NCBI GenBank assembly: GCA_963665765.1
Contig: OY762464.1
Location: forward strand, 233,741 to 297,740
DNA from: Acidimicrobiia bacterium
Lineage (GTDB): Bacteria; Actinomycetota; Acidimicrobiia; Spongiisociales; ZC4RG35
Reading direction: 5' to 3'
DNA: 64,000 bases
Part shown: piece by piece, positions 3,683 to 47,405 of the stretch
Position numbering within the stretch: the stretch's first letter is position 1
Layout of the letters: every line of letters starts with the position of its first letter
Notes under the pieces: generated by a model
Told to the model about the DNA's origin: nothing
The model's database searches: none
The model's input: the letters and a program-made list of their open reading frames with translations, nothing else
Position numbers and translations under genes: made by a program

Positions 3683-3695
3683 CTTTCAATAATCA

Positions 3696-3747
3696 GGTTG
3701 GGTTGATCGACGCTTTCCGTCGGTCAACCCAACCACCCCCCTTTTTT
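3696..3747 (+). terminator. rho-independent terminator after the betaine-binding protein gene
   Basis: A 17-bp near-perfect inverted repeat ggttgggttgatcgacg / cgtcggtcaacccaacc with loop ctttc, followed by a T-tract (cccccctttttt). Confidence 0.6.
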
Positions 3748-3869
3748 CTCTCACCAACCCCGGTCACCCGCGGTTATCCCAACCGGATCCTTACGTTCCG
3801 ATGCCCGTGCCACCTGCTCCGGGGAAAGCCGCCTCTCTATCCACCCGGGGCGGGGTTCGACCCATCCCC

Positions 3870-20819: not shown

Positions 20820-22532
20820 TCAGAGGTACTGTCCGGTGGTGACCGTTTCCACCATCCGACCGTCGCCATCCTCCAACAACGTGCGTACGTAAACGATCCG
20901 CTCGCCCTTTTTGCCGGAGATCTTCGCCCAGTCATCGGGGTTGGTGGTGTTGGGAAGGTCCTCGTGCTCGCGGAACTCACGACGGACCGCCGCCAGCAGA
21001 TCGTGGGCGCCGATGCCGGGATCTCCCCCGCTCAGATAGCGTTTGATGGCGCTTTTTTTGGAACGGCGGACGATGTTTTCGATCATGGCACCGCTGGAAA
21101 AGTCCTTGAAGAACAACACCTCTCGGTCGCCATTGGCATAGGTGACCTCCAGAAAGCGATTCTCTTTCTTTTCCGAATACATGGCGTCCACCACGTCCGT
21201 GATCAAATCCTCCAACATTCCGTCGGTGTCTCCCCCGGCTTTCGTCAGGCCGTCCGGGCTGTAGGGAAGATCCGAAGTCAAATAGATACGAAATATCTCC
21301 CGGGCGGCGACTTCGTTGGGACGGGAGATCTTGATTTTGACGTCAAGGCGGCCGGGCCGGAGGATCGCCGGATCTATCAGGTCCTCCCGATTGGATGCTC
21401 CGATAACGATCACGTTCCGCAAAGATTCCACACCGTCCAGCTCGGAAAGCAACTGGGGAACGATGGTCGACTCCACATCAGAGGATATTCCGGTGCCCCT
21501 GGTGCGGAACAGCGAGTCCATCTCGTCGAAGAACACGATCACCGGCACTCCTTCGGACGCCTTCTCCCTGGCCCGCTGAAAGATCAACCGAATCTGTCGT
21601 TCGGTTTCCCCCACCCACTTGCTAAGCAGTTCCGGACCCTTGATGTTGAGGAAATAGGAGTGGGTGTCCGGTTGGCCGGTCCGCTCGGCGACCGCCACGG
21701 CGAGACTGTTGGCCACCGCCTTGGCGATCAGGGTCTTGCCGCAACCGGGAGGACCATAGAGCAGTATGCCCTGGGGAGGCTTGAGGTTGTACCGGGAGAA
21801 AAGTTCACGGTGCACATAGGGAAGCTCCACTGCGTCACGGATCATTTCGATCTGGGAATGTAGACCCCCCACCTGCGTGTAGTTGACATCGGGAACTTCC
21901 TCGAGGATTAGTTCCTCCACCTCGGGGCGCGCCAGTCTCTCCAGGGCCATGGCGCCTTGCACATCCACCCGCACGTTGTCTCCCATGCGCAACGGCTCGT
22001 CCTGCAGCGGACCGGCGATCCACACCACCCGGTTCTCGTCTCCGTGAGCCTGCACCAAAAGTCGGTCCTGTCCCAGGCGGTCTCTCACCACCATCACTTC
22101 TCCCGTGCCGTCGAAATCGCGGACATCGATGATGGAGTAGGCCTCGTTCAACAGGACCTGCTGTCCGGGCTGGAGCTTTTTGACCTCAATGGAAGGCTGT
22201 GCGTCCACCCGGAGCTTGCGAGTACCGGTCACCAGATCCACTTTTCCGTCGGTGTGCACTCCCAACACCGTCCCGAAGGCGTTGGGGGGGCTGGTCAGCC
22301 GTTCGATCTCGGTCCGGAGCATGGCCAGTTGTTCGCGGGCTTCGGTCAGGAGGGCGCCCAGTTTCTCGTTCTGGCCGCGCACTCGATCGAGTTGCCGCCG
22401 AGTCTGGTCCATCTGGTGCTGGAGAGCGTCGATCCGACGGGGAGTCTGCGAACGCAACCGGGCCAGCTCACCCTCCAATTGAGCGATAACTGCGGAGGGA
22501 TCGGAGTAGTCGGGTCGGCGCTGTTCGAACAT
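20820..22532 (-). CDS. arc: proteasome-associated AAA ATPase ARC/Mpa
   Basis: N-terminal coiled coil, AAA module [16 protein letters not shown], and C-terminal ..TGQYL. Start placed at [11 protein letters not shown] (Met 102 of the track ORF). Confidence 0.9.
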
Positions 22533-22652
22533 CTTCCTGCTTCGAGGATTTTCCGGCGTGCGGATGAGTATACGAAATGTGTTTGTATTCTGGGATACCA
22601 AGCTTGTTATCATTGAACTCAACCATTCCAAGGACGGGAGACCACAAGGGCT

Positions 22653-22898
22653 ATGAAGGTTTGGATTGATCAAGACCTCTGCACCGGCGATGGGCTGTGC
22701 GAAGAGATTGCCCCGGATGTTTTCGTTCTCCTGGATGACGGCCTGGCCTACGTTCGGGACGGCGAGACCATCTATGCGGAAGCCGAGGGACACATACAAG
22801 GCGCCGGTGGGCTCGCAATCGTTCCCGCCGGCCAAGAAGACATCACCATCGAGTCTGCCGAAGAGTGCCCCGGGGAGTGCATCTTCATAGAGCCCTGA
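22653..22898 (+). CDS. small [3Fe-4S]/[4Fe-4S] ferredoxin
   Basis: 81 aa with the [26 protein letters not shown] cysteine pattern of single-cluster actinobacterial ferredoxins. Confidence 0.85.
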
Positions 22899-27482: not shown

Positions 27483-27588
27483 GCTTCCCTTCGTTCATTT
27501 GACCGCGATCCCTTGACTGGACATGTGTCTTTGGCAAGCACGTCTCTCGACCGGCGGATACCGGAAGTTGCCCCACCTGCCCTATAGG

Positions 27589-29052
27589 ATGACACCCATG
27601 ACGACAGAAGCGTTCGACTCTCGAAGGACCCCGACCGAGACATCTTCTTTTGGGGTTGGCCGGCGGGAGAGTCATGATTCGTCTGCTTTCTATGCGCGTT
27701 TCGATCCTCCTGTCATCGACCTGGACGAGCGTGTCGGTCGCCGCCCTCAGAGAGAAGGTCCGATCTTGGGCGATGCTAGGTCTATGAGCGATTTGCCGAG
27801 CAACTCGGTGGCGTTGGTGGTCACCTCGCCGCCTTATTTTGTGGGTAAGGAGTATGAGAACGAGGTGATGGTCGCTGCCCGGTCGGGGAATGTACTTTCG
27901 GAGGTTCCAGGCAGTTACAGGGAGTATTTGCGGCTGCTTCATGACGTTTTCCAAGAGTGCTATCGGGTGTTGGAACCGGGAGGTCGGATGGCGGTCAATG
28001 TGGCGAACCTGGGCCGTAAGCCTTATCGAAGCCTTTCTGCTGATGTGATCCGGATCTTTGGAGATCTCGGGTTGTTTCTTCGAGGTGAGATCATCTGGCG
28101 CAAAGCCGCTGCCAGTAGCGGTTCCTGCGCGTGGGGTTCGTTCCGCAGTCCCTCCAACCCGGTGCTGAGGGACGTGACGGAAAGGATCGTGGTGGCATCC
28201 AAGGGAAGGTTCGATCGTGCGCTGCCGCCCGCCCGCCGGCGAACTCTGGGGCTTCCCCATGTGGCCACGACCAACAGCGACGAGTTCATGGAAGCCACTT
28301 TGGACGTGTGGACAATCCCTGCCGAGAACGCCCGCAGAGTGGGTCACCCCGCCCCGTTTCCCGTCGAGCTACCCCTACGACTCATCCATCTGTACACCTA
28401 CGAAGATGACCTGGTGTTAGACCCGTTCTTAGGATCGGGAACTACTTTGCTAGCTGCCCTCCACGCGTCGCGAAGGGGCGTTGGGTACGACATCGACCCT
28501 GAATATGTTCAGATCGTCGAGGACAGACTTCAACAGGCCACGGTTGACGCCACCGATAATCGCCGAGTGTCTGTGTCGGTCGAAGGTGCCCGTTCCCTGG
28601 CACGGCGGACACTCGAGGAATCGGGATTCACCATCATCAAAACCAACCCGAAGTTAGGAGGCACCGGCGTCTCATACGACTTTCTTGTTGAGAACCGGTA
28701 CCGTCAGAGGTGGTATGTGGATGTGGCAGGAGGGTTCACCGCCGTCCAGCCGGGACTTCAACGCAGCACGGTGGTGTGGGAAACTCTCGGGAAGGCGCAT
28801 GTGCTTCACGGAACGGAAACCGCCAACGAGCCTCGGGTGCTGGTGATGACCCCCAAGTTGCCCAAGCCCGCAAGCCTGGGGCGGAAAGCCATCAATGCTG
28901 TTGGACCCCGGCGTCTGTTCGACCTCATTGAGCTTTCCAACGCTTCTGATCTTCTGCGGCTGCAGTGTTACGGGACGCAACTGACCGGCCGTCCCTCCCT
29001 TGGGTTCTGGACCACCGAGCAGATCAGTCAGTCCTTCTCGACCGACCGGTAG
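27589..29052 (+). CDS. beta-class N6-adenine/N4-cytosine DNA methyltransferase with an extra C-terminal domain of about 190 aa
   Basis: Motif IV SPPYFVGKEY precedes motif I DPFLGSGTTLLAA (PF01555-type order). Start placed at MTPMTTEAF; it lies immediately right of the IS630 end. Confidence 0.85.
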   Translation: MTPMTTEAFDSRRTPTETSSFGVGRRESHDSSAFYARFDPPVIDLDERVGRRPQREGPILGDARSMSDLPSNSVALVVTSPPYFVGKEYENEVMVAARSGNVLSEVPGSYREYLRLLHDVFQECYRVLEPGGRMAVNVANLGRKPYRSLSADVIRIFGDLGLFLRGEIIWRKAAASSGSCAWGSFRSPSNPVLRDVTERIVVASKGRFDRALPPARRRTLGLPHVATTNSDEFMEATLDVWTIPAENARRVGHPAPFPVELPLRLIHLYTYEDDLVLDPFLGSGTTLLAALHASRRGVGYDIDPEYVQIVEDRLQQATVDATDNRRVSVSVEGARSLARRTLEESGFTIIKTNPKLGGTGVSYDFLVENRYRQRWYVDVAGGFTAVQPGLQRSTVVWETLGKAHVLHGTETANEPRVLVMTPKLPKPASLGRKAINAVGPRRLFDLIELSNASDLLRLQCYGTQLTGRPSLGFWTTEQISQSFSTDR

Positions 29053-29100
29053 ATCCGAGACCGCCGGTCACCAAATTCCGGGCTTATAGCATCATCAACA

Positions 29101-30105
29101 ATGGCTTCTCTGCGAACCGAAATAACAGAGATCGTCACCGGACTGGGAATGTTGCCCCTGGGCAGCATAGAGGAAGCGCTCCAGGGCCGCCCCGCCGCCG
29201 TGGTGGGTGTTTCCGACAATCACTACGATCGCCTATCCGAAGCCCTTAGAAACCCTGCGAATCGTGGGCTGTTCGAAAGCGCGTGGGCGAACGGGAAAGC
29301 CTTCGCTCAAGCCAGGGAAGGACTGCGAGGCCGCACGCCTCTCAGGGTCGAATGGAAAGGACCTCACCAGCTGCCCGGCTACGAGCAGATCCCCGTGGAC
29401 CTGCGAGTGGACTACGTGTATCTGGTAAGTTGCAAATACGGCTCCAAACTGCTCCACAACGCCTCACCCTCTCACCTGTTTGACCGGCTTCTCGCTGTCC
29501 GCCGGGGACCAAGAGGGGACTGGTACAACGAAGTGGCCCCCGGCGGCTACCAGCGTTTCTATACTGCCTGCCGCGACCACCTGGGCGGTACAGACCTCCC
29601 AGAGAAGGTGACGGACCTGAACCGGGAGCAACGCAACCGCCTCAAGACATCATTCAAGCGCCACTGGCCTTCACCCCTCAAAAGCCCGTACCAACAGTTC
29701 ACTGCTCTGGTGTCAAACGCCTCCGCTCAACGTTGGGTGTCCGCGCTGGGAAACCGCGCCCAAACAAAGGAAGAACTTCTGTGGCGCCTGCTACGTCTCC
29801 AGCCCGCGCCTTACTTTGTGCTGGGAACATCCGGCAAGACTCCGGTGCGATACCGGATTGACACCCCCTGGGACTTCCGCCAACGCTACGAGTTCCGATC
29901 CTTTCACATCGAACCCGAGAAAACAGGACAACCACGAGTCCGATGGCAAGCTCAACTGAACGAGAAAACAACAGACAAACTCATCCAAGTAAAGGGACAT
30001 ATTGAAGTCCGATGGAGCCACGGACGCTTCCAAGGAGCCCCAGAAGCCAAGGTATATCTGGACACCAGTCCCTTGGAAACGGCCGGTTACAGAATACTGG
30101 TATAG
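29101..30105 (+). CDS. hypothetical protein; candidate cognate restriction endonuclease of the upstream methyltransferase
   Basis: 334 aa, same strand, 49 nt downstream of the methyltransferase gene. No recognisable family. Possible degenerate PD-(D/E)xK-like stretch ..PVDLRVDYVYLVSCKYG.. . The call rests on position only. Confidence 0.35.
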   Translation: MASLRTEITEIVTGLGMLPLGSIEEALQGRPAAVVGVSDNHYDRLSEALRNPANRGLFESAWANGKAFAQAREGLRGRTPLRVEWKGPHQLPGYEQIPVDLRVDYVYLVSCKYGSKLLHNASPSHLFDRLLAVRRGPRGDWYNEVAPGGYQRFYTACRDHLGGTDLPEKVTDLNREQRNRLKTSFKRHWPSPLKSPYQQFTALVSNASAQRWVSALGNRAQTKEELLWRLLRLQPAPYFVLGTSGKTPVRYRIDTPWDFRQRYEFRSFHIEPEKTGQPRVRWQAQLNEKTTDKLIQVKGHIEVRWSHGRFQGAPEAKVYLDTSPLETAGYRILV

Positions 30106-31187: not shown

Positions 31188-32230
31188 ATGACTGCTAGAG
31201 ATGTGACGGAACGGGCGGCTGTGGCTGTGGTGTCTGATGAGCTTGTGGAGGCGGTGGTGGCTGATGCGGCTTCTGGTGGTGTGGAGCTTTTGGGTCCTGA
31301 TGGGGTGCTGGCCGAGTTGACCAAGCGTGTGCTGGAACGGGCTTTGGCCGAGGAACTGACCGATCATTTGGGCTACGAGCATGGTGATCCTATGGGTCAT
31401 GGGACGGGTAACAACCGTAACGGGTCCACTCCCAAGAGGGTGCTGACCGAGATCGGAGCGGTGGATCTGGACGTTCCCCGTGACCGTAACGCCACGTTCG
31501 AACCCAAGATCGTTCCGAAGGGCGCCCGCCGGCTGGAACGTTTCAACGCCAACGTCGTGGCGTTGTACGCCCGGGGTCTGTCCACCCGTGACATTCGCTC
31601 CGAGCTGGCCCGCATGTACGGCGTGGACGTGTCGCCGGCGCTGGTGTCGAAAATCACCGACGGGATCGTCGAGGAGCTCACCGAGTGGCACAAATCGGCC
31701 TCTTGACGGGTGCTATCCGCTTCTGTACATAGACGCCATGGTGGTAAAGGTCCAAAAGCGACGGCACGGTCATCAACCGCCCAGCTTATGTGGTGGTCGG
31801 CGTGGACGTGGAAGGCCGCAAACACGTCCTCGGTGTCTGGTTGGGCGACGGCGGCCAAGCGCGCCAAACTTCTGGCTGTCGGTGCTGACCGAGAATGCGC
31901 CACCGAGGCCTCGAAGACGTGCTGATCGTGTGCTGCGACGGCCTCAAGGGACTCCCTGACGCGATTGAGGCCACTTGGCCCCAGGCGCTGGTACAGACCT
32001 GTGTCATACATCTGCTGCGGGCCTCTACGAGGCTTTGCAGCCGGGGAAGACCGCAAAATGATCGCCAAGGGGTTACGGGCTGTGTACACCGCGGTGAACG
32101 CCGAAGCGGCCGCCCAGGCGTTGGAAGAACTCGACGACCAGTGGGGAGATCGCTATCACACCGGGATGCTCCTATGTTTGATGGTCCCCGGGTTTTGTGG
32201 AGTCAGCTTACTTGGATCAGTGGTGTGACG
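31188..32230 (+). pseudogene. IS256-family transposase, frameshifted and 3'-truncated
   Basis: N-terminus ..LAEELTDHLGYEHGDP..NRNGSTPKRVLTEIGAVDLDVPRDRNATFEPKIV... Later blocks sit in other frames (..LYIDAMVVKV.. / ..[34 protein letters not shown]..), cut off by the IS3 insertion. Confidence 0.8.
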
Positions 32231-33115
32231 GTTTGGTTGTTGTGGTAGTGGTTGGTTTCGTATTCGATCGGGGTGAGCATGTTCAGGGACGTGTGGCGCC
32301 GTTGGCGGTTGTGGAAGACTTCTAGGTATTCGAAGATAGCGTTGGCGAGTTCGATACGGGTCCTCCAGCGTTGGCGGTCCAACAGTTCGACTTGCATACG
32401 GGCCCAGAACGCCTCCATCAGGGCGTTATCAAAGCAGTCGCCGACGGTCACCGATCGACGGTACGAGTCCGGAATCGTGGGCTCGTTGGGTGAACGCCCA
32501 GAAGGGTGCATCTGGGTGCCCTGGTCCGAGTGTATAACCGTTCCTGAGCGCGGCTGGCGGTTGCTGATTGCCATACCAAGTGCGGAGGTGACCAGTCCCG
32601 CGGTCGGAGAGTTGTCGATTGACCAGCCCACGACCCGGCGGCTGAACACGTCAAGCACTCCACGGCACAGTACACCCTGCCTTCCCGGGTGGGATGTTCG
32701 GTTATATCGGTCACCCACAACTGGTCCGGTTCGGAACGGGCCAAGGTTGCGGTCGACCAAGTCGACAGGGGTGTCCACGGGACGGGGGCGCCGCCTGGGC
32801 CGGCGGCTTCCACTAAGACCAGCTATGCCGGCTCGGCGCATCAGCATCGCTACCGCGTTGTGCCCGACGGTGATCCCATGACCCAATGCGAGTTCGGCAT
32901 GTACCCGCCGTGCTCCATAGATACCCCGTGACCCATGATGGATCTGACAGATGATGTCGGTGAGCCACGCGTGGCGAATTAGACCGGGCCGACGGAGGAC
33001 GGGACCTCCACACAAAGAATCCCGACTCCGACCACACCCAGCACGCCACCTGGGTGGAGAGCCCCTCGGTTCTCATGGTCTGGATCGCTTCGTAGCGTCT
33101 TTTGCGGTGCACCAC
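32203..33115 (-). pseudogene. IS3-family transposase OrfB (DDE integrase core, extra frameshifts) plus the C-terminal part of OrfA
   Basis: ..WVTDITEHPTREGRVYCAV.. / ..DVFSRRVVGWSIDNS..VIHSDQGTQ.. / ..DCFDNALMEAFWARMQVELL.. split over two frames. OrfA tail ..TELTVTKRAIELLKGKVVHRKRRYEAIQTMRTEGLSTQVACWV. Confidence 0.8.
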
Positions 33116-33180
33116 CTTGCCTTTGAGCAGCTCGATAGCTCGCTTCGTTACGGTTAGTTCGGTTTCCAGTTCTCTATCCG

Positions 33181-35133
33181 GCCCGAGTTTGGCGGGTCAA
33201 GGGGGTTTGGTGGGATGTGATTGGTGTGTTGACCTGGGGTTTTGTGTTGTGAGGGGTTGCTTCTGCACGATATTGTAGGGGCGACAGTTGGTTGGTGTTA
33301 GGGAGGTGGTGCTGGTAGTATTGTGGGGTATGTTCGTTAAGACGACCCGCCGTAGGAGGGGCGACAAGGTTTACGAGTACTTGTCGTTGGTGGAAACGGT
33401 TCGCAAGGGGTCGAAGATCGGCCATCGGACCCTGTTGCGCCTGGGAGAAGTCACCGCTTTACGCCAATCGGGACAGTTGGGACGGATCATCGCCGCGTTG
33501 GAACGTCACCTGCACAAAGAACGCGTCGACGTTGACAGCTTGGCCGCCGAGGGAGCACCCGCGGTAGGAGCAGTAGCCGCAGCGGCCGCGGTATGGAAAC
33601 AACTGGATCTCGGGGGGTTCTTCACAAAAGTAGGCGCGGAACGCCGTGCTGACGTTTTGGAACATGCAGTGTTCGCGATGGTGGCGAACCGGCTGGTAGC
33701 CCCGTGTTCGAAACGTCGTCTGCCCGAATGGACAGAACATGACGTGGTGATGCCCCAAGGCTGGTCAGCGCCGTCGTTGGACCAGTACTACCGGGCCTTG
33801 GACGCCGTCGCCGACACCAAGAACGAGACCGAGGAGCATTTGTATCGGCGGTTGTGCAACCTGACCAACCTGAACCTTCGGCTGGTGTGCTATGACCTGA
33901 CATCCACCTATTTTGAGGGTTCGACCCAAAAGTCGGAAGCGTTTCCGTCGCGGGTGTTCGGGTATTCGCGGGATCATCGCCCGGACAGGCCCCAGATCGT
34001 GATCGGTCTGTTGTGCACCACAGACGGGATCCCGATAGCCCATCATGTGTTCTCGGGGAACACCAACGACGCCTCCACCCTACCCGGGGTGTTGGAAGAC
34101 CTGGCGGGACGGTTCGCGGTGGGCAGGATCTGTGTGGTTTCCGACCGGGGGCTCATATCAGCATCTAACCTGGAAACGGTCACCCAAGCGGGGTTTGATC
34201 ACCTGCTGGCCACCAGACTCCGCCGCGATCGGATCACCGCCCAAGCGCTTTCGGCTATTGACCAGGACACTGTGTGGGTGCAGCTACCCGAACACGGTTC
34301 CAGGGCCGCTGATATCACCCTCGAAGACGGGACCCGCACGGTGGTGGTCGAGTCCGACGCTCGTGCCCGTCGGGACACACAACGCACCGCCGAACTTATC
34401 GCCGCTGCCGAAACGCAGTTGTTGGCGTTGGAACATCGTGTCCGTTCGGGGAGACTGAAAGACCCCGCCAAGATCGGGAGAGCCGCCCAACGCATCCTCG
34501 GCACCGGGCGGGTCGGGCGACTGTTCGACCTCGAGATCGGACCAGGTCGCTTTCTCTACCACTACAACGAGGACAACCAGGCATATGAGAAGCTGTTGGC
34601 GGGTCGCTATGTGCTGACCACCAGTCTCACATCCGCACAAGCCGACACCGCCGAAGTGGTGGCCTGCTATCGCCAACTGCAAACCGTCGAAACCCGCTTT
34701 CGGGTGCTCAAAGACTTCCTACGACTACGGCCGGTGCGGCACTGGACCGAGAAACGAGTCCGCGGTCACGTAGCGGTCTGTGTGTACGCCGCTTTGATGG
34801 AAACGCTCATCACCCAGGCTCTCACCGCAGCCGATGTCCGCGATCCCGACCTCGAACACCAACACCTCACCGCCGCACGGGCCCTCCAACAACTCAACCG
34901 CGTCCGCCGCGTGGAACTGACCACCAACAACCACCAGATCACCATAACCACCCGACGCACCCCCCTACAAACACGGGCACTCGCCGCCATCGGAGTCGAC
35001 ACCCGCACCTGGGACAAAGCCACCATCACCTAACCACCACACCGGCTCAAACACCGAATGTAGTGGAAACACCTTCTTCGCGTATGCCCCCTGACCTGGT
35101 AAAACACAAAACCACCCGCCAAACTCGGGTCCG
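33181..35133. mobile_element. IS1634-family insertion sequence (about 1.95 kb), apparently intact, inserted into the IS3 orfA
   Basis: Terminal inverted repeat (g)cccgagtttggcgggt at the left end, reverse-complemented as acccgccaaactcgggtc at about 35116-35133. Flanking IS3 OrfA reading frames resume on both sides. Confidence 0.75.
33330..35033 (+). CDS. IS1634-family transposase
   Basis: 567 aa uninterrupted with characteristic blocks (..YEYLSLVE..RLVCYDLTSTYFEG..VVSDRGL..). Start at MFVKTTRRRRGDKVYEY. Confidence 0.85.
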   Translation: MFVKTTRRRRGDKVYEYLSLVETVRKGSKIGHRTLLRLGEVTALRQSGQLGRIIAALERHLHKERVDVDSLAAEGAPAVGAVAAAAAVWKQLDLGGFFTKVGAERRADVLEHAVFAMVANRLVAPCSKRRLPEWTEHDVVMPQGWSAPSLDQYYRALDAVADTKNETEEHLYRRLCNLTNLNLRLVCYDLTSTYFEGSTQKSEAFPSRVFGYSRDHRPDRPQIVIGLLCTTDGIPIAHHVFSGNTNDASTLPGVLEDLAGRFAVGRICVVSDRGLISASNLETVTQAGFDHLLATRLRRDRITAQALSAIDQDTVWVQLPEHGSRAADITLEDGTRTVVVESDARARRDTQRTAELIAAAETQLLALEHRVRSGRLKDPAKIGRAAQRILGTGRVGRLFDLEIGPGRFLYHYNEDNQAYEKLLAGRYVLTTSLTSAQADTAEVVACYRQLQTVETRFRVLKDFLRLRPVRHWTEKRVRGHVAVCVYAALMETLITQALTAADVRDPDLEHQHLTAARALQQLNRVRRVELTTNNHQITITTRRTPLQTRALAAIGVDTRTWDKATIT

Positions 35134-35330
35134 GCGGCGAGCAGCCCGCAGTTCTGTTTGCTCTGCTGAAGTAGAGCCGGGTTCTACACCACGGTCAATC
35201 AAGTCCTGGCGCCGCCAGTTGTAGATGGTCTGGTCTGACACTCCAAGGTCCTTCGACAGAGATGCAACTGACCTGCCAGATGCAAGCAGATCCAACACCC
35301 TGCGACGGAACTCGGGCGGACATTTCGATA
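35134..35330 (-). pseudogene. N-terminal fragment of the IS3-family OrfA (HTH), separated from the rest by the IS1634 insertion
   Basis: ..PPEFRRRVLDLLASGRSVASLSKDLGVSDQTIYNWRRQDLIDRG..AEQTELRAARRR then runs into the IS1634 repeat. Confidence 0.6.
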
Positions 35331-35435
35331 CGGCATGAAGACCCTCCTTTTCGGGGTCGGTCACCACCAATTCAAATAACCCGACCCCACAAAAGCGGGG
35401 GCACACCTAACCCCCTCTATGAAACCCGGTGTGAT

Positions 35436-36230
35436 TCAGGATGGGCTCGGTGGCAGTTCGCTTGTAAGTTTGAGAGGTTGGGGCAATTCCGCATTCGATT
35501 CCAGTCCGAGTGCCTCCTTCAGGGACGATGCCAGCCCCGCCCAGTCGCTGTCCGGTTTCCGAAGGCGGTCAAGCGCATCTCGTAGGCTGTTGTCTGACGT
35601 AATAAACACATCGGCCCCGGCTCTTATGGCCGCGGCATAAATGTATGCATCCATCACTTCCATAAGAACGTGGGACCAGACCTCCTGTGCATCAACCCAG
35701 ATGCTATCGGGTGGTACCCATAATCCCGCGGAGGGGTCCTCCACGTCGATTACGTCAAGACGGTAGTCCACCCGGAGTTCGTCGCGGAAGGTCTGCAATT
35801 GATGACCCAACTCGGTGTAGTCTGTTTCCTCCAGGGCAACTCGGAACAACACTTGGGGGCGTTTCACCCGGAGGCTGTGCGGCACCCGTTGACGAATCAG
35901 GTGCTCCAAGCCACGAGCCTCAAGAAGCACGTGATGTAGTTCAGACCAGCAGACTTGTGATGAGAAGTAGAGGTAACCGTCGTCGGCTTTGAGGTGTTGG
36001 AATAACTTCATACCGTCCTTGACGAATTGGGCATCGGTCTTGTTGAGTGCGTCTGTAACCACGTCAGCGGACTCAAGCGCTGTCTTCAGTTCCCCCCAGT
36101 CCGAAACCGCATCGAGTTGGACTTTCGCAGTCGTGCAAGTATCCCAAAACTGGAATAGCCTCACTAAGACGTTGGTATCAAGGAATACGCTCGGCTGAAC
36201 CCTCACGCCGGACGCACTGGCAATTGTCAC
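35436..36230 (-). CDS. PIN-like nuclease-domain protein (gene 4 of the four-gene operon)
   Basis: 264 aa. N-terminus ..SVFLDTNVLVRLF.. and C-terminus ..DAYIYAAAIRAGADVFITSDNSL.. bracket a PIN-type fold with acidic residues. Start overlaps the upstream gene's stop by 4 nt. Confidence 0.55.
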   Translation of the reverse strand: MTIASASGVRVQPSVFLDTNVLVRLFQFWDTCTTAKVQLDAVSDWGELKTALESADVVTDALNKTDAQFVKDGMKLFQHLKADDGYLYFSSQVCWSELHHVLLEARGLEHLIRQRVPHSLRVKRPQVLFRVALEETDYTELGHQLQTFRDELRVDYRLDVIDVEDPSAGLWVPPDSIWVDAQEVWSHVLMEVMDAYIYAAAIRAGADVFITSDNSLRDALDRLRKPDSDWAGLASSLKEALGLESNAELPQPLKLTSELPPSPS

Positions 36231-37393
36231 GTCTTGGCGGGTCCCGGATACAAATCTGCCTCGGCGTCCTCTACGAGTGCTGCGGAGAGTGGAACGTCCT
36301 CTTTCCGTTCAAGGGCTAGGCCAATGGTGTGCCACATGATCTTGATCAATCGTCGCGGACTTGATCGGCTCGTCTCACGGAGCCCGTTCAAAGCGTCTTC
36401 AGAGAACGGCAGAATGCCCTCGCCGCCGTTGATCCGCGCTGGTTTTAGCCGCTGAGCAACGATGCCATAGGCTTCTTCCGCTGAAAGTGGGGGGATAATG
36501 TACCTGTTGACAAAACGCTGAACGAGAGACTTGTCGAGTTCCGACGTTCGAGCGAACCCTTCGGGAGTTGTTGACAAGATAATCCACAACTCTTCGCGCT
36601 GGGCAACATCAAGCAGCCGGCGCAGTGTAGTGGTGTATGCCGCAGCCTGGTTTTTGCTTAAGCGTCTAGCAAGTGCAATGTCCTCGAACTCGTCGAGCAG
36701 AAAGGCTATGCCGTCGGCGTCGAATATTCTCCTCAGGATGGTCACGATGGCTTGGAAGTACCCCGGCTCCTCTCGCTCGGCAACCAAAGACTTCCTAGCA
36801 CGAGGAACGAAGTCTCGATACTCGAAGTAGGGACGTTCACCAGTCTCGACAATGAGCCGCGAAAGCTTGTTCAAGATCTCATCGTCTGTTGCGATGCCTT
36901 GGTCTTTCATGGCTTGGGAGAGCGTCTGTATGGCCTGGTCGCGGAGCGTCCTGTTCCGAAGAGTGCCAAGCCACTGTCCGAACTCAGGCCAAAAGAGGGC
37001 CTGCTGGGCTGCTTCTGTGTTGTTCGGTTGGTACAGCATCTCCCAGAGAGCCTTCGTTACCTCGTAGCGTCCCACCTGACGCATGAGGCGGTTAGCAAGG
37101 TCATAGAACGCAACTCCGGGATTCTCAAAAAAATAGGATTTGACGCGATGTTCGGGAAGCACTTTGGCTTGAATCCAGTTGAGGATGAACGTCTTACCGG
37201 CTCCATACCCGCCCTCAATTATGAGTGCTTTGCTCCCTTGGGACTCGGCAAGGTTTTTAAATCGCATAAGTAGGTCTTTCTCCCAGCTGGGCGGGAGTGA
37301 GATATCATCCACGAATTCGGCCCCGGTGGTCGCAGGCGGAAAGGGATTACGGGTAAGGCCGAGATGGCTTAGTTGGGTATTGGCGACGGTCAT
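36227..37393 (-). CDS. ExeA/GspA-like AAA+ ATPase (AAA_22-type P-loop NTPase; gene 3 of the operon)
   Basis: N-terminal GLTRNPFPP motif typical of ExeA-like ATPases. Walker A IIEGGYGAGKTFIL and Walker B-like ..IAFLLDEFEDI... 388 aa. Confidence 0.6.
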   Translation of the reverse strand: MTVANTQLSHLGLTRNPFPPATTGAEFVDDISLPPSWEKDLLMRFKNLAESQGSKALIIEGGYGAGKTFILNWIQAKVLPEHRVKSYFFENPGVAFYDLANRLMRQVGRYEVTKALWEMLYQPNNTEAAQQALFWPEFGQWLGTLRNRTLRDQAIQTLSQAMKDQGIATDDEILNKLSRLIVETGERPYFEYRDFVPRARKSLVAEREEPGYFQAIVTILRRIFDADGIAFLLDEFEDIALARRLSKNQAAAYTTTLRRLLDVAQREELWIILSTTPEGFARTSELDKSLVQRFVNRYIIPPLSAEEAYGIVAQRLKPARINGGEGILPFSEDALNGLRETSRSSPRRLIKIMWHTIGLALERKEDVPLSAALVEDAEADLYPGPAKT

Positions 37394-38424
37394 GACCTTG
37401 GACCTCCGTTCTGCATGTGTTCGCTAAGCATCCGATGAATGCGGAGATGGGACAAGTAGGCACCGCTTGGTGAACGCAGGTAGCTTTTTAGCGCTAGGGC
37501 GTGCTGGCTATCGGGCAAACCTGCAGTGATGAATCCCACGCGTGTGGGAAGGCCGGCGACAAGACCGAAGTGGTCAGTCAGCCAACTCATGAGAACCCCC
37601 TTGGCCTGGTCAACCGAGACATGCTGCTTAATCCCCGTCGTCAAGGCGCAATCAGGGATCCGTATGGTCGCCCAGTCTCCAGCAAAATCCAGGGCAGCGA
37701 ACATTTCTACCGCTAGTTCGCGGTCGGTCATTCGTGGGACTATGTGTTTAGGATACGCGGTGTAGGTTCCGTTCGGTCTATACATGATGTCTAGGAAGCC
37801 AAGTTGGTCTACGCACCATGATCTGAGGCCGAAGTGAATTGCTTGAATGGCATCGACACCATTTAGGAGGCTCCATTTGGTGGTTCCGACGGGTCGAATC
37901 GCCACTTGCTTCCAGCGGTTCCGGCCAACATAGTGTTCTCGGTCGCTGTCGTGGTCGCCCCTTCGCTCAACACCTCTAGACTGGATAACGACTTCGACGG
38001 GACGCGCTCTCTCTACAAAAGATGTAGCATCGCAGGCCGCTTCTTGAGGTTGGAGGAAGTTCCTAAAGAACACGTCGTAACAGTCCTTGTTTCGGAGGAC
38101 TGCGTTAGCAAACGCCTCCTTCTCGGGTACCTGCAGTTCCTCCCCAAGTTTCGTTGTTGCAGTCAGAATACCTATTTCCGGATTCTGATAGTTGAGAACG
38201 AAGCGGCGCCCCTGCTTCTCCAGGAGATCTAATCGCACCAAGGTCCTCCGGTGGTGGTAATGGGTACTTTGGGCATAGGGCCGTCCGTCTCGGCGCAGGA
38301 GAACACCCTCCTCGGTGGCCAGTGTCTCGATTTCGTTTGCCCGGAGGCCGGGTGGGTGCTTATCAACCAAGAGGAGGAGGTCCCGTAGCGCCCGGAAGTT
38401 GAGCCAACGCATCCAGAGGTTCAT
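37390..38424 (-). CDS. hypothetical protein, possible N-terminal winged-helix domain (gene 2 of the operon)
   Basis: 344 aa with no confident family. 4-nt overlaps on both sides. Confidence 0.45.
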   Translation of the reverse strand: MNLWMRWLNFRALRDLLLLVDKHPPGLRANEIETLATEEGVLLRRDGRPYAQSTHYHHRRTLVRLDLLEKQGRRFVLNYQNPEIGILTATTKLGEELQVPEKEAFANAVLRNKDCYDVFFRNFLQPQEAACDATSFVERARPVEVVIQSRGVERRGDHDSDREHYVGRNRWKQVAIRPVGTTKWSLLNGVDAIQAIHFGLRSWCVDQLGFLDIMYRPNGTYTAYPKHIVPRMTDRELAVEMFAALDFAGDWATIRIPDCALTTGIKQHVSVDQAKGVLMSWLTDHFGLVAGLPTRVGFITAGLPDSQHALALKSYLRSPSGAYLSHLRIHRMLSEHMQNGGPRS

Positions 38425-39671
38425 GGGTTCGTGCCCTTCGACAAAAGGATCACCGATTCTCGGGATGGCTGTCGGCCGTAGCGCCCCATTTGCTGGGCAG
38501 CGTTTCCCCGGGTTCGCATCACCCAGACCGCCTCGAACTTTAGCCCCGCTTGGCTAGCTAATCCGGATACTATCTCATCGGCCGGCACCATGACCCCAGC
38601 GTGCCGGACGTTCCCCACGACGTAGGCTGCCCGCCCACCGGGTCGGAGAATTCGGTCGACCTCTACGAGGGATAGGTAGATGTCCTCAAAATATCCCTGC
38701 AGCAACCGCTTGACACGGTTGTCGGTATTCGCCGGCAGTGCCCGTAGAGTCTCCTGGAGCAACGCAATTGGCTTGTACGCTCCGAGTTGGCGCGTGAAGC
38801 CACGGGGTTTCTTAGCTTCCACATGAGAGCGGATGGAGCGATGCCGAAGCCTGGTGACTTCCGACTCGGCCTCTCCTAAAAGAAGCAATCCGATGTGGAA
38901 AACCCGAGAGTAATCGTGACGGTTCGCATAGGGAGGAGAGGTTATAAGACCGTCAACGGACAACGCCCCAATAGGGAGTTTCCGCGCATCAGCACATTTA
39001 ACCGATGCCGTGTGGTATTCCTCGGGCCAGTTGAGAGCCTCAACGTCGGCCATCATGACAGACACAGTCTCGTTGAAGACGTCCCTTATCTCGGTGCTGC
39101 GGTCGGGCCACTCCTGCCATCGGAACCATCCACCGTCGGGAACAGCCCGGCTAAAGCCCCGCATTGCGGACAAGAGCGCCACGAGGAAGAAGGAGCGGGG
39201 CGTTCCTTGTAGCCTGCGGATCGGTCGGAGGAGGGTAAATATCTCTCTCAATTCCGTCTCGGTAAAGGCTCGCGACAGCCTAGGCGAGACTTGTTGCGGA
39301 TCAACTGATGTGGCGGCGAGAATCCTACGGAAGGCCCGCTCAAGACTGTTCTGGTGGTAGGACGCGATTTTCGCGGTACCTACAGTTACAGACAGAGGGG
39401 AAATATCGAAGCCCAGAGCTGTCAATCCACGCTCCCGCGCGGTGAGCACAGTTGTCCCCGATCCCGAAAAATTGTCAGCGACGATGCCATCACTCGGAAA
39501 ATCCCAATAATCCAGAATCGTGTTAACTAGGCGGTACGAGTAGCTGTGTGGGAAGTAGAACCATCGGTGCCGCGGGGCGGAGCTGAGGTCTCGTGATGTC
39601 GCGGTGGCTGCCAGATCTGGTCTCTGGCTAAACCCTAGGGGAGCAGGTGATGTATCCATGGCTACGGTCAC
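38421..39671 (-). CDS. DNA methyltransferase (N6-adenine/N4-cytosine; motif I before motif IV; gene 1 of the operon)
   Basis: Motif I ..DNFSGSGTTVLTARERG.. near the N-terminus and motif IV ..LITSPPYANRHDYS.. about 190 aa later. 416 aa. Confidence 0.8.
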   Translation of the reverse strand: MTVAMDTSPAPLGFSQRPDLAATATSRDLSSAPRHRWFYFPHSYSYRLVNTILDYWDFPSDGIVADNFSGSGTTVLTARERGLTALGFDISPLSVTVGTAKIASYHQNSLERAFRRILAATSVDPQQVSPRLSRAFTETELREIFTLLRPIRRLQGTPRSFFLVALLSAMRGFSRAVPDGGWFRWQEWPDRSTEIRDVFNETVSVMMADVEALNWPEEYHTASVKCADARKLPIGALSVDGLITSPPYANRHDYSRVFHIGLLLLGEAESEVTRLRHRSIRSHVEAKKPRGFTRQLGAYKPIALLQETLRALPANTDNRVKRLLQGYFEDIYLSLVEVDRILRPGGRAAYVVGNVRHAGVMVPADEIVSGLASQAGLKFEAVWVMRTRGNAAQQMGRYGRQPSRESVILLSKGTNP

Positions 39672-40473
39672 GTCCGGCCCACACCAATGACCCGTATTGG
39701 AGAGAAGGTAGGTAGGAGATGCGTGGGCGAGGATGGGCGAGGCAGTGGTCCACTGCCCACCAGCGTTGGTTGAGTTCTTGGACGAACTAGCGCTTCTGTC
39801 TTTTGGGCCTCATGCAAGTCGTGCTCCCAGAGCCCGTCAAGCCACCCCATTTCACAAGGACCCTGTTTGATCACACCAAGCATCAGACCATGCAAGTCCA
39901 CCAATATCAGTCGAAAACCAACACCCATACATCCCCTCACATTAACGTCATTAGCCCCGCCACCATTAGGAGTGTTAGGGAGGACAAAGCGGTCCGGCTG
40001 GGGTATCGGGGTGTTTACACTACCTTTGACCCGGCGCCTAAGATGAGGGTTTGGGGAGAACACCACGGCTGGGGGAACACCACAATTCACCTTTTGGCTA
40101 CCCCACTTCCCTCACCTTGAGGCAGAATGGCTGGATACCGACCAGCCTCCGTCTGCCGCAGTGGACATTCCCGGCTCCCTAGTCGCACCAGGGACGTGGA
40201 CCGCCTTATGTGATGGAAGTTGCCGCTTGATATACCCCCGGGAGGCATGGATCCCAAGCATATCGCTTTCGATGACCGCTGGTGCACTCAGCAGCCGGGA
40301 AGAACCTTCGGGAACGCCATCACGCCATGACTGAGATGAAGGCCGAGTTGAAGCACGATATTCGTTCGACAGAGATGCGGACCAAGTGTTCCTGTGATCT
40401 TCGGTTTGTTTGAGTAGCGAAAGAGCCCCTTATCCATAACACGATCGTACCGTCCACAGAAGGAACCACCCTG

Positions 40474-41082
40474 GTGGCTGCCCGGCAGGCCTTGCGAAGA
40501 GGGGTGGGGTATGACATTGACTCCGAATATGTGCAGATCGCCGAAAAAAGATTGCAGGGCGTCACGGAGCAAACCTCCGAGGATCACCCCCTGGGCGAGT
40601 CCGGGGCGGTCAAGGGCGCCCGCGCCCGGGCGCGGCAGATACTTGAGGAATCGGGTTTCTCCATCGCCAAAACCTCCCCGAAGATCGGGCCAACCGGCGT
40701 CTCATACGAGTTTTTGATTGAAAACCAGCATCGTCAACGATGGTATGTGGATGTGGCCGGAAGTTTCACCACTGTCCAGCCGGGCCTGCAACGAAGCACG
40801 GTGGTGTGGGAGACACTGGGGAAGGCACATGTCCTCCACGAAACACCAAGCATCGATCAGCCTCGCGTGCTGGTCGTCACCCCCAAGCTGCCCAAACCCG
40901 CCAGTTGGGGCCGGAAGGCCATCACGGCGGTGGGACCCCGGCGCCTGTTCGACGCCATTGAACTCTCTGACCATTCCGACCTTCGGCGGCTTCGGTGGTA
41001 TGGAACCAAACCCGCTCCCCGCCCCGCCCCAGGATTCTGGACAAAACAACAGATCAGCCACTCCTTCCCCACCGCCCGGTAG
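40474..41082 (+). other. stand-alone paralog of the methyltransferase C-terminal domain (truncated methyltransferase copy; GTG start)
   Basis: 202 aa, about 80% identical to residues about 300-509 of the 27589..29052 methyltransferase (..RGVGYDID.EYVQI..ESGF.I.KT.PK.G.TGVSY.FL.EN..RQRWYVDVAG.FT.VQPGLQRSTVVWETLGKAHVLH..). Upstream 40420-40473 keeps a degenerate motif I (..TEGTTLVAA). Confidence 0.7.
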
Positions 41083-42960: not shown

Positions 42961-44121
42961 TTAACCTGCGGCCGCTATCTCGACCATTTTCTCGAGATTG
43001 GCGGCGATCCGGGCTCCGTCGCCGATCTGTTCGGCTGAGCAGGTCACCAAAAATCGCCGCCGGGCGCCCACCATGTCCGCCGCTTCGTTTAGACGGGCCA
43101 TGTCGGTTCGGCTCGGTCGGGTGGTCAGCTTGATCTCGATCGCCCAGAGTTCCCGGCCAAAATCGATGAGCAAGTCGATCTCGCGGCCGTCGGACGTGCG
43201 GAAGTGGCGAGCATCGGCATAGCGACCAGATTGCTGGAGGGCGGTGAGCACCTGCTCGATCACATGGCCTTCCCAGCTCGCTCCCACCCCTGGCGCCTTC
43301 AGCAGATCGTGGTCGGAGTCAACCCCGAGCAGGGCATGCAACAGGCCGCTGTCCCGCCAATAGACCTTGGGTCGCTTGGTAACCCGCTTGCCGATATTGG
43401 CATGGTGGCCCGGCAAGCGCCTTACCAGAAATGCGCCCTCCAGGTAGTCGAGGTACGAGTTGACCGTATGGTACGACAATCCGAGAGCTGCCCCGATGTC
43501 GCTGGCGTTCCAGGTTTGGCCATGGCGCGCCGCCAACAGTCGAAAAAGCCGACTCGTGTTCTGAGGGCTGGCGGGAAGACCCCAGGATGGGAGATCCCGC
43601 TGAGCGAGCAGACTCAGATAGTCCTGCTGCCATTGAGGAAAACTACGCCCGTCCAGCACCCCTCCGTCGGGATACCCACCGCACCGCCACCGCCGGTTGC
43701 GAACCGAATCGGGCAACTCTGTCAATGACAACGGGGACAGTTCCACGATACTGAGACGTCCGGCGAGCGACTCTGAAACATTCTTCATCAGAGCAGGCGA
43801 AATCGATCCGAGCAGCAGGAAACGCCCATTGCGGCGTCGGTCGGAGTCGATCACGCCTCGCAGTCGCGGGAAAATCTGCGGGGCGGCCTGAGCCTCGTCA
43901 ATGACTACCAACTCGTCGGCACGGGCAACCTCGTCCCATTCGAGGTCAATCCTCAGCTGGTCGGTCTCCTGCTCCATGTCGTAATAGCGGCCGCCTAAAG
44001 AACGCGCCAGGGTCGTCTTGCCACACTGACGCGATCCCACAAGAGCCACCGCCGGATAAGAGCCGAGCCGCTTCTCCAGCAAAGAATCCAGACCCGCCGC
44101 GGCGATATTTCGCGGTAGCAT
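42961..44121 (-). CDS. AAA-superfamily ATPase with a DUF4143 domain
   Basis: Walker A GSRQCGKTTL. The domain organisation matches the common AAA_14 plus DUF4143 ATP-binding proteins. Confidence 0.8.
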   Translation of the reverse strand: MLPRNIAAAGLDSLLEKRLGSYPAVALVGSRQCGKTTLARSLGGRYYDMEQETDQLRIDLEWDEVARADELVVIDEAQAAPQIFPRLRGVIDSDRRRNGRFLLLGSISPALMKNVSESLAGRLSIVELSPLSLTELPDSVRNRRWRCGGYPDGGVLDGRSFPQWQQDYLSLLAQRDLPSWGLPASPQNTSRLFRLLAARHGQTWNASDIGAALGLSYHTVNSYLDYLEGAFLVRRLPGHHANIGKRVTKRPKVYWRDSGLLHALLGVDSDHDLLKAPGVGASWEGHVIEQVLTALQQSGRYADARHFRTSDGREIDLLIDFGRELWAIEIKLTTRPSRTDMARLNEAADMVGARRRFLVTCSAEQIGDGARIAANLEKMVEIAAAG

Positions 44122-45841: not shown

Positions 45842-46242
45842 TGTCATCCCGAGCTCCAATCGGATATTTGGCAATCACAGAAGTCCCCGTGGCAATCAAT
45901 CAGGGAATCATCGCAATCCGCTGTGATAAAAGGACTGGCCCTGTTTACACATTGCACTGGATTGAAGCACATCTTGACGTCATAAAGGCCTGGGCAAGTG
46001 GCACTACCTTTCTGGAAATAAGCAAGTCTTCTTTTCGAACCTGGCCCTTTCTAACATCAACGCAGGAAATTCATGCCGCCTACGAGTCCATTACAGCCCT
46101 TCTGCATAGGCAAATGGCAAGAACCACAAGACAATCCAGCGCGCTTTCCACCCTGCTACCCAAACTTTTATCAGGAAAATTGCGGGTGGGTCGATCCAAA
46201 GGCCTGACGCATCGAGGACAGTGGAACAGATGCCACAGCTAA
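45733..46242 (+). pseudogene. hsdS: type I R-M specificity subunit HsdS fragment (end of one TRD plus the conserved C-terminal region)
   Basis: ..SRAPIGYLAITEVPVAINQGIIAIRCDK..EAHLDVIKAWASGTTFLEISKSSFRTWPFL..LLPKLLSGKLRV. Its 5' part overlaps the MNT gene. Confidence 0.75.
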
Positions 46243-47405
46243 AGAAGACCCTGACCTTGCAGCCCGCCGTCTTGAGATGGGCGCGGGAGCGGGCTGGTTT
46301 AGAGCCCGATGAGCTTGCGGCGCGTCTCAAGGCCCAAACCCGAGACATTGAAGAATGGGAACGCTCGGGCAGGATTAGCTTCGCCAGAGCTGAAGCCTTG
46401 GCCAAAAAAACATATACGCCCGTTGGTTTTCTCTATCTCGACGAGCCGCCCATTGAGAGTCTCCCCATCGCCGATTTTCGCACTCGCGCGGGAACTACAC
46501 CGCCAAGACCCAGTCCCAACCTGTTGGACACCGTCTACCTCATGCAACTGCGGCAGGCTTGGATGAGAGAGGAGCTGATTGGTCAGAAAAGTGCTCCCTT
46601 GCCCTTCGTTGGAGCCTTCGGCTTGGATGCGCCTCCCTCGGAAGTTGCCGCCGCAATGAACGACGCCTTGCAACTGAAAGGAGGTTGGGCAGCGGCAAGA
46701 GGAACTTGGACCGACGCATTACGAACCTTTAGAGACCATATTGCTGCAGCAGGGGTATTGCTCTTCTTCAATGGCGTGGTGGGGAACAATTCCCACCGCA
46801 AGTTGCAAGCTGATGAATTCCAAGGGTTCGCAATGGTGGATGACTATGCACCGCTTATCTTTATCAACAACGCCGATTACAAGACCGCTCAGATGTTTAC
46901 ACTGGCCCATGAGCTGGTTCACCTTTTCGTCAGCGAATCCGGGGTCTCCAAATTGGAGGCCCTGAGTCCATCGGACCATGTCGTTGAGCAAGCGTGCAAT
47001 AGCATCGCAGCCGAATTCCTTGTGCCGAGTCGGCAGTTGCGCCAAACCTGGATCACGGCGAGGCATTCAGACGATCCCTTTCAGCATCTTGCCAGATACT
47101 TCAAGGTCAGCACGGTTGTAGCTGCTCGGCGAGTTCTTGATGCCAACCTAATATCACGAAAGGCCTTCTTCGAATACTACGAAGAAAACAAAGCCAAACA
47201 TTGGGGCGGGACACAGTCGACAGGCAGCAGTCGGGGCGGAAATTTTTGGAATAACCAACGCTGGCGGGTGGGCACTCGATTCGCCACGGCCGTCAGTCGT
47301 GCGGTGATGGAAGGGCGCCTGTCTTACACCGAAGGATACACCCTGACCGGATTGCGGGGCGATACCTTCGCGAACATACCGGCAAAAATGGGCATTGCCC
47401 TGTGA
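46221..47405 (+). CDS. XRE-family HTH fused to an ImmA/IrrE (DUF955) zinc metallopeptidase
   Basis: N-terminal HTH (..LRWARERAGLEPDELAARL..) and the HEXXH motif LAHELVHLF. Confidence 0.8.
   Translation: MEQMPQLKKTLTLQPAVLRWARERAGLEPDELAARLKAQTRDIEEWERSGRISFARAEALAKKTYTPVGFLYLDEPPIESLPIADFRTRAGTTPPRPSPNLLDTVYLMQLRQAWMREELIGQKSAPLPFVGAFGLDAPPSEVAAAMNDALQLKGGWAAARGTWTDALRTFRDHIAAAGVLLFFNGVVGNNSHRKLQADEFQGFAMVDDYAPLIFINNADYKTAQMFTLAHELVHLFVSESGVSKLEALSPSDHVVEQACNSIAAEFLVPSRQLRQTWITARHSDDPFQHLARYFKVSTVVAARRVLDANLISRKAFFEYYEENKAKHWGGTQSTGSSRGGNFWNNQRWRVGTRFATAVSRAVMEGRLSYTEGYTLTGLRGDTFANIPAKMGIAL

Follow-up and report, generated by a model that had tools for sequence, protein, structure and literature searches.

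Methylation-based immunity has been found to reach beyond classical restriction-modification, in BREX, DISARM, MADS and MANTIS, and the way in which ATPases couple the reading of DNA sites to modification or restriction is an open mechanistic question. We analyzed a cassette of four genes in a 64,000-nucleotide stretch (hereafter the window; positions 233,741 to 297,740 of contig OY762464.1, assembly GCA_963665765.1) of an Acidimicrobiia bacterium. The cassette lies at positions 35436-39671 of the window and encodes a predicted DNA methyltransferase (methylase; gene 1), a predicted winged-helix protein (gene 2), an AAA+ ATPase (gene 3) and a PIN-domain protein (gene 4); at about 4.2 kb and four small proteins, it is compact enough to be attractive for reconstitution and structural work. 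An earlier reading of the DNA letters (hereafter the original prediction) had proposed it as a candidate new defense system. The four genes recur together in distant hosts, and we consider it probable that they constitute a self-contained, horizontally mobile, restriction-like defense system that tells self from foreign DNA by methylation.

The closest four-gene analogue is MANTIS (Gao_RL, BREX-related type 2), which consists of the AAA+ ATPase MtsA, MtsB, the methylase MtsC and the helicase-nuclease MtsD, and in which the AAA+ ATPase loads the alpha-class methylase and triggers the nuclease (bioRxiv 10.64898/2026.09.23.753747). Like the cassette, MANTIS combines an AAA+ ATPase of the Orc/Cdc6 kind with an alpha-class methylase, a nuclease and one accessory protein, and both appear to discriminate self from non-self by methylation. 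However, MANTIS has DUF499 and DUF1156 proteins and a superfamily 2 (SF2) PLD-helicase, whereas the cassette has no helicase gene, no such motor and no PLD nuclease. Its proteins are also far smaller (a 388-residue ATPase and a 416-residue methylase), its effector would be a PIN protein, its accessory protein is predicted to be multi-winged-helix and its methylase has SPPY rather than DPPY. There is no sequence relation between the two at the sensitivity of PADLOC: its Gao_RL models gave no match for genes 2-4 (expect value, E, up to 0.1) and none among the 25 of 40 matches listed for gene 1.

Two further systems resemble parts of the cassette. For the SspB-SspC dyad, which consists of a triple winged helix-turn-helix (wHTH) protein and an Orc/Cdc6 ATPase, the proposed role is to scan and recognize DNA while coupled to an enzyme that modifies it; DndG has similar helix-turn-helix (HTH) modules (PMC10853773). 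The FokI-like wHTH stack and AAA+ ATPase predicted for the cassette would match this dyad by structure, with no sequence match to the SspB or SspC models or to PDB, and profile searches found none of the Ssp/Dnd phosphorothioate enzymes (cysteine desulfurase, DndC/SspD PP-loop ATPase) in the cassette. In BREX, BrxA, which is paired with BrxC, has FokI/BpuJI-like HTH modules, BrxC and BrxD are Orc/Cdc6-like ATPases and a methylase marks self DNA (PMC12839542). The best, though weak, Pfam and NCBIfam matches of gene 3 are to BrxC_BrxD (PF10923; 26.5 bits, over only 33 residues around the P-loop) and to BrxD (NF033438; 23.1 bits against a cut-off of 350 bits). Nevertheless, the cassette lacks PglZ, BrxB and BrxL, and its methylase reads as a short alpha-class PF01555 enzyme, unlike the gamma-class PglX. 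We rejected membership of BREX on the grounds that no cassette protein matches the alkaline-phosphatase-like PglZ or the large ATPase BrxC (PglY), both of which BREX requires, that BrxD is matched far below its cut-off and that the borders of the cassette exclude further conserved genes. MADS was rejected as well; it is an eight-gene operon (mad1-mad8), to which there are only weak partial matches (mad2, E 3e-4; mad8, E 6e-4).

The cassette is similarly difficult to accommodate among restriction-modification systems or among known PIN systems. It has the methylase expected of a Type II system; an endonuclease of a known restriction fold (PD-(D/E)XK, HNH, GIY-YIG, PLD or half-pipe) that works without NTP was not found, since gene 2 is modeled as a winged-helix protein, the only predicted nuclease is of the PIN type and an AAA+ ATPase is conserved. 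FokI-type (Type IIS) enzymes differ in that no cleavage domain is attached to gene 2; the predicted nuclease is a separate PIN protein, with the ATPase interposed. In HEC-03 (an ABC ATPase with a VapC-like PIN protein) and in the PIN systems DS-3 and DS-5, a role in defense has been validated (bioRxiv 10.1101/2024.01.29.577857; PMC13092281). These resemble the cassette in pairing a VapC-like PIN effector with an NTPase, not with a VapB antitoxin, but the ATPase is ABC-type, not AAA+, and there is no methylase or winged-helix reader. A census of PIN domains in 2017 stated that no PIN-like nuclease had been demonstrated to serve as a restriction module and found none in Type II contexts (PMC5499597).

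Searches of four profile libraries (Pfam; NCBIfam, June 2026; PADLOC 2.0; PHROGs) found no model that places the four genes in a described system. The defense-related matches in PADLOC and NCBIfam were generic Type II methylase profiles and weak P-loop matches (BrxD, mad8, PDC-S20, SngB, PtuA). Neither NCBIfam nor PADLOC has a model for genes 2 and 4, and Pfam also lacks one for gene 2, so current defense-finding tools cannot recognize the cassette as a system. A literature search did not find the gene set described, which is absence of evidence and not proof of novelty. The original prediction had held that the layout corresponds to no established architecture. This stands as far as assignment to a system is concerned, but the logic of the layout has precedent in the triple-wHTH and Orc/Cdc6 dyad of Ssp and BREX, and in MANTIS.

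The features of the cassette are as follows (window coordinates).

38421-39671, minus strand: gene 1, 416 amino acids, GTG start (alternative ATG at 39659); predicted DNA methyltransferase
37390-38424, minus strand: gene 2, 344 amino acids; predicted multi-winged-helix DNA-binding protein, proposed DNA or site reader
36227-37393, minus strand: gene 3, 388 amino acids; predicted Orc/Cdc6-ExeA-like AAA+ ATPase
35436-36230, minus strand: gene 4, 264 amino acids, GTG start; predicted VapC-type PIN nuclease
35397-35415, minus strand: terminator-like GC-rich hairpin and T-run, about 20 nt 3' of the gene 4 stop (consensus scan)

The list of open reading frames (ORFs) bears out the four minus-strand genes of the original prediction, and all three gene junctions, read from the sequence, are 4-nt stop/start overlaps. 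The prediction had given ATGA for each of these; this is so for the first two, but the third (36227-36230) is GTGA. The hairpin at 35397-35415 is likely the 3' end of the operon, although terminator-like sites found by the consensus scan are no more numerous in this region than expected from shuffled sequence. A promoter scan upstream of gene 1 gave nothing useful. The GC content of the cassette (0.55-0.57) is below that of its surroundings (about 0.60-0.62). A 140-amino acid ORF (39668-40090) lies upstream and overlaps gene 1 by 4 nt; we rejected it as a fifth gene of the operon because none of the related loci contains anything equivalent.

With the gene 2 family as seed, a genome scan found 12 loci, all of which carry the four genes in the same order, and a metagenome scan seeded with the ATPase returned 14 further loci, in which, wherever there was enough flanking sequence, the same neighbors were present in all but one (L019). 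Ten of the metagenome loci carry the four genes as far as their flanks allow, and L019 is the only exception among those of the 24 distinct loci besides the window that have enough flank. The hosts of the 12 genome loci are Acidimicrobiales (including the sponge symbiont Candidatus Poriferisocius), Bryobacterales, Tepidiformaceae, Dehalococcoidia, other Chloroflexota and Caldilineaceae metagenome-assembled genomes (MAGs). The closest relatives of the cassette are in Acidimicrobiales MAGs, in agreement with the actinobacterial host that a proteasomal ATPase gene of the window indicates, and its spread covers at least three phyla (MAGs of Actinomycetota, Chloroflexota and Acidobacteriota) as well as unassigned low-GC contigs. 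Three of the latter loci (L027, L028 and L029) are distant, with ATPase identities of only 22-25%. Even so, L027 and L028 encode an SPPY methylase, a gene 2-like protein that keeps a C-terminal SH-x-K/R-L/I motif, an ATPase with NPFP and Walker motifs, and a PIN protein with FLDTN; the shorter locus L029 shows the methylase and ATPase.

The association also survives rearrangement. Two permuted loci (L013, 7007-11333, and L014, 7004-11679) have genes 2, 3 and 4 in order, followed by the methylase after a gap of 150-500 bp; their methylase and gene 2 proteins have 60% and 30% identity, respectively, to those of the window. In L033 (P0320), genes 2 and 3 are fused into a single gene (2253-4391) whose 712-residue product is encoded between a 549-residue methylase and a 253-residue PIN protein. 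The cluster to which this fusion belongs has a 717-residue member from an independent assembly, so that the fusion is present in two assemblies, which supports a physical association of the gene 2 and gene 3 proteins. Across 18 loci the four proteins diverge together, with correlations of r 0.84-0.97 between their pairwise identities, and nucleotide similarity to the relatives is confined to positions 35513-39683 of the window, with different flanking genes in every locus. Given this co-inheritance, the rearrangements, the correlated divergence and the sharp boundaries, the four genes are a unit of inheritance, and their recurrence in independent loci is far beyond chance; the fortuitous juxtaposition that the original prediction had allowed for is thereby dismissed. 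One relative, L008 (9029-9968), is decayed: an internal deletion joins the ATPase at about residue 200 to the PIN protein at about residue 144 and leaves the methylase and gene 2 intact, a pattern like that of a restriction system that has lost its toxic half. In the exceptional L019 (3578-6589), genes 2-4 are present and the PIN acidic site is intact.

Gene 1 has motif I as D66-FSGSGTT and motif IV as TSPPY (residues 244-248). It matches Pfam N6_N4_Mtase (36.2 bits; cut-off 26.7), the PADLOC model MTase_II PDLC03224 over its full length (residues 31-412; E 4.8e-52) and PHROG 18146, "DNA methyltransferase" (E 1.9e-36). The order of the motifs, with FSGSGTT followed after about 150 residues by TSPPY, indicates that the protein is an alpha-class DNA amino-methyltransferase. 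TSPPY and the motif I glycines are invariant across 18 loci, and TSPPY is also found in the distant low-GC versions. SPPY in PF01555 enzymes points to methylation of N4-cytosine rather than N6-adenine, and we therefore predict that the mark made by gene 1 is N4-methylcytosine, based on the invariant SPPY. The most variable segments of gene 1 (residues 101-160 and 201-240) fall between motifs I-III and motif IV, with a core that is nearly constant among close relatives. This variation suggests that the methylase may carry its own target-recognition region.

Gene 2 has no sequence match in Pfam, NCBIfam, PADLOC, PHROGs or the sequences of PDB, and its family is rare, with 227 clusters (50% identity) in a set of 1.84 billion representatives. 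In this sense the original prediction correctly described it as having no recognizable family. It is not featureless, however: an AlphaFold model built on 24 homologues has a predicted local distance difference test (pLDDT) score of 90.5 and is composed of winged-helix domains, and its best multi-domain structural match is the recognition domain of FokI. The model has no nuclease fold, and there is no conserved PD-(D/E)XK, HNH or GIY-YIG motif. Based on this model, gene 2 is predicted to be a multi-winged-helix DNA binder, of the triple winged-helix kind, that resembles the FokI recognition domain. Conservation is high in the recognition helix of its first winged-helix domain, where Y56, H57 and R59 are invariant, whereas the middle domain and the wing are variable. 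In addition, H57, C115, H326 and H330, located across the first, middle and last domains, are invariant or nearly so, and Y56, R59, D114 and W251 are invariant too. The histidine and cysteine residues could form a metal site that ties the domains together.

Gene 3 contains the letters GLTRNPF, GYGAGKT and LLDEFED, that is, the ExeA-type motif and the Walker A and B motifs on which the original prediction had based its assignment. Its N-terminal L-x2-NPFPPA motif is invariant, as are G61, G64, G66 and K67 of Walker A (G61-x-YGxGK67; 25 sequences) and D234 and E235 of Walker B (18 sequences). Having both Walker motifs, the protein is classed from its sequence as a P-loop AAA+ ATPase. Beyond the BREX-related profiles described above, its Pfam matches, also weak, are to AAA_22 and NACHT, and there is a weak match to a PHROG of Mu-type transposition proteins (E 0.0086). 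Two members of the gene 3 family have been labeled "ExeA" by the Joint Genome Institute (JGI).

Gene 4 passes the Pfam PIN threshold and has no PADLOC or NCBIfam match, including none to HEC-03B in PADLOC. The FLDTNVL and ITSD motifs are both in place, and the acidic site is conserved (D18, which is D or E in relatives, E97, D194 and D213). The nearest folds are VapC ribonucleases (RNases), the top match being PcrIIC1 from the structure of a DNA-bound Cas9 complex; the protein carries about 130 extra residues, mostly in helical insertions. It is a VapC-type PIN protein with a conserved acidic site, and we predict that it is active as a nuclease. The motif-based assignments of genes 1 and 4 in the original prediction thus agree with the profile matches. 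We rejected gene 4 as the toxin of a VapBC pair, since the gene upstream encodes a 388-residue ATPase and not a small VapB, and since its 264 residues compare with about 130 in such a toxin. Among nine close relatives, the mean pairwise difference is 50% for the PIN protein, 32% for gene 2, 28% for the ATPase and 24% for the methylase. The PIN protein evolves about twice as fast as the methylase, which fits an exposed effector.

The explanation that we favor, and rate as rather likely, is that the cassette belongs to the methylation-based, ATPase-assisted, restriction-like defenses, among which its PIN effector and stand-alone FokI-like reader would be distinctive. We infer its defensive role, the methylation target and the order of events. 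In favor of this explanation are the co-inheritance of the genes through rearrangement and fusion, their intact active sites, the folds of genes 2 and 4, the defense genes beside independent loci, the lower GC content, the decay of L008 and the precedents in Ssp, MANTIS, HEC-03 and DS-3/DS-5. In outline, the gene 1 methylase would mark host DNA. The proteins of genes 2 and 3 would form a physical reader complex in which ATP binding or hydrolysis serves as the switch on unmodified target DNA; by analogy with MANTIS, this complex may also load the methylase. The PIN protein of gene 4 would then be released or recruited to cut nucleic acid, either the DNA of the invader (true restriction) or RNA (abortive infection). 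The original prediction had cast the ATPase and PIN protein as sensor and effector. We retain the PIN protein as the putative effector, but the likely sensor is gene 2 together with the ATPase, the two being fused in L033. A stronger claim, that this is a restriction-modification-like system with a PIN effector, the first of its kind, in which an ATP-gated, Orc-like and triple-winged-helix reader couples the methylation status of DNA to PIN cleavage of DNA or RNA, we put forward tentatively and regard as somewhat doubtful. Cleavage of DNA by the PIN protein would add a new, sixth catalytic fold to those of restriction, and cleavage of RNA would make the system a hybrid in which epigenetic discrimination triggers an abortive-infection effector.

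Several observations weigh against the explanation that we favor. The conserved first recognition helix of gene 2 argues against that helix reading variable sequence. In L019, the sequence around genes 2-4 (3.5 kb upstream and 5 kb downstream) holds no related methylase, which is awkward if the methylase is essential for self-protection; there it is either encoded elsewhere or dispensable. Neither an ATPase relative nor a copy of the cassette was found on viral contigs, and the plasmid collection gave no relative of gene 2. No solved structure matches gene 3 significantly by sequence, so its assignment to a clade comes from weak profile matches. Lastly, solved VapC-type PIN proteins are mostly RNases and restriction enzymes whose catalytic domain is a PIN are not known (PMC5499597), so that cleavage of DNA is not the default expectation. 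This last point bears on a reading of the cassette as a system of abortive infection, in which the trigger for genes 2 and 3 is either foreign DNA lacking methylation or a phage protein, they unleash the PIN protein as an RNase on tRNA, rRNA or mRNA, the growth of the infected cell stops, and the methylase only prevents self-triggering. We consider this unlikely as a full account, although its RNA-cutting step is shared with one branch of the mechanism outlined above.

It is far less likely that two neighboring systems have been misread as one, with gene 1 and gene 2 (as the endonuclease) forming a Type II pair beside a separate ATPase-PIN toxin or abortive module. Many Type II endonucleases have no detectable sequence family, as is the case for gene 2, and the match of the methylase to a Type II profile is full-length. 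Yet the gene 2 model holds only winged-helix domains, with neither a nuclease fold nor any of the three nuclease motifs sought, and it is with genes 3 and 4 that gene 2 remains in the permuted loci while the methylase moves. The fusion in L033 likewise joins gene 2 to the ATPase, and the genes were never found apart except in fragments at contig ends, in the decayed L008 and in L019. We give equally little credence to a non-immune role, in which an Orc-like initiator, a DNA-binding partner and a methylase would make up a replication, partition or epigenetic-control module of an unrecognized mobile element, with the PIN protein as an addiction toxin. ATPases of the Orc/Cdc6 clade and of AAA_22 also serve transposons and replicons, and such a role could be read into the weak Mu-type transposition match of gene 3 and into the position of the cassette beside insertion sequence (IS) elements in the window and serine recombinases in L005. 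However, the flanking genes change from locus to locus, and none of the integrase, transposase or replication type accompanies the cassette. Its absence from viral contigs and the lack of a plasmid match for gene 2 also count against a mobile-element module, as does the predominance of defense genes among its neighbors.

These neighbors, in the window and around its relatives, are a defense-island signature, as the original prediction had recognized from the setting of the cassette between a nested IS stack and a methyltransferase fragment. On one side, an IS3-family element (32203-35406; orfA-like gene at 35047-35406, rve orfB at 32203-33015) abuts the gene 4 terminator and is split by an opposite-strand DDE_Tnp_1 transposase gene (33288-35033). 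On the other side is a truncated methylase (40474-41082), a paralogue sharing 68% identity with the C-terminal 200 residues of a methylase encoded at 27523-29052. Among the relatives, L006 neighbors DISARM DrmD/A/B-like genes, L007 has HKD-Snf2 and a Type IIG-like enzyme, L012 an AriA/PD-T4-4-like ABC ATPase, L013 HigB and L028 a Schlafen-type helicase; L014 places the cassette between a Type ISP enzyme and a GmrSD-like gene.

The sole plasmid match to the ATPase is a distant relative (25% identity) on a plasmid of Halorientalis litorea (NZ_CP095485.1, 131312-140250; L031), annotated as "BREX system ATP-binding domain-containing protein". It is preceded by QueE, 6-pyruvoyl-tetrahydropterin synthase, two tRNA-guanine-transglycosylase-like genes and a 298-residue protein of unknown function. 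We rejected this locus as an example of the same system, for the 298-residue neighbor is unrelated to gene 2 (hhalign probability 0.1%) and the ATPase lies beside 7-deazaguanine modification genes. The locus suggests that the gene 3 ATPase superfamily also partners with 7-deazaguanine DNA modification.

Other genes in the window were also identified. The methylase at 27523-29052 is a complete beta-class Type II enzyme of 509 amino acids (PADLOC MTase_II, E 4e-88) and is followed by a 334-residue ORF without a family (region 27523-30105); these two may be a separate restriction-modification pair. At 42961-44121 and 46221-47405, respectively, there are an AAA_14/DUF4143 ATPase, which corresponds to the PADLOC candidate PDC-S01 (E 8e-84), and an M78-peptidase protein matching RmrA/CapP models; both are additional defense-type genes of the island that holds the cassette. 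A proteasomal ATPase of the Mpa/ARC type, with OB domains and an AAA domain, is encoded at 20820-22835 and indicates an actinobacterial host.

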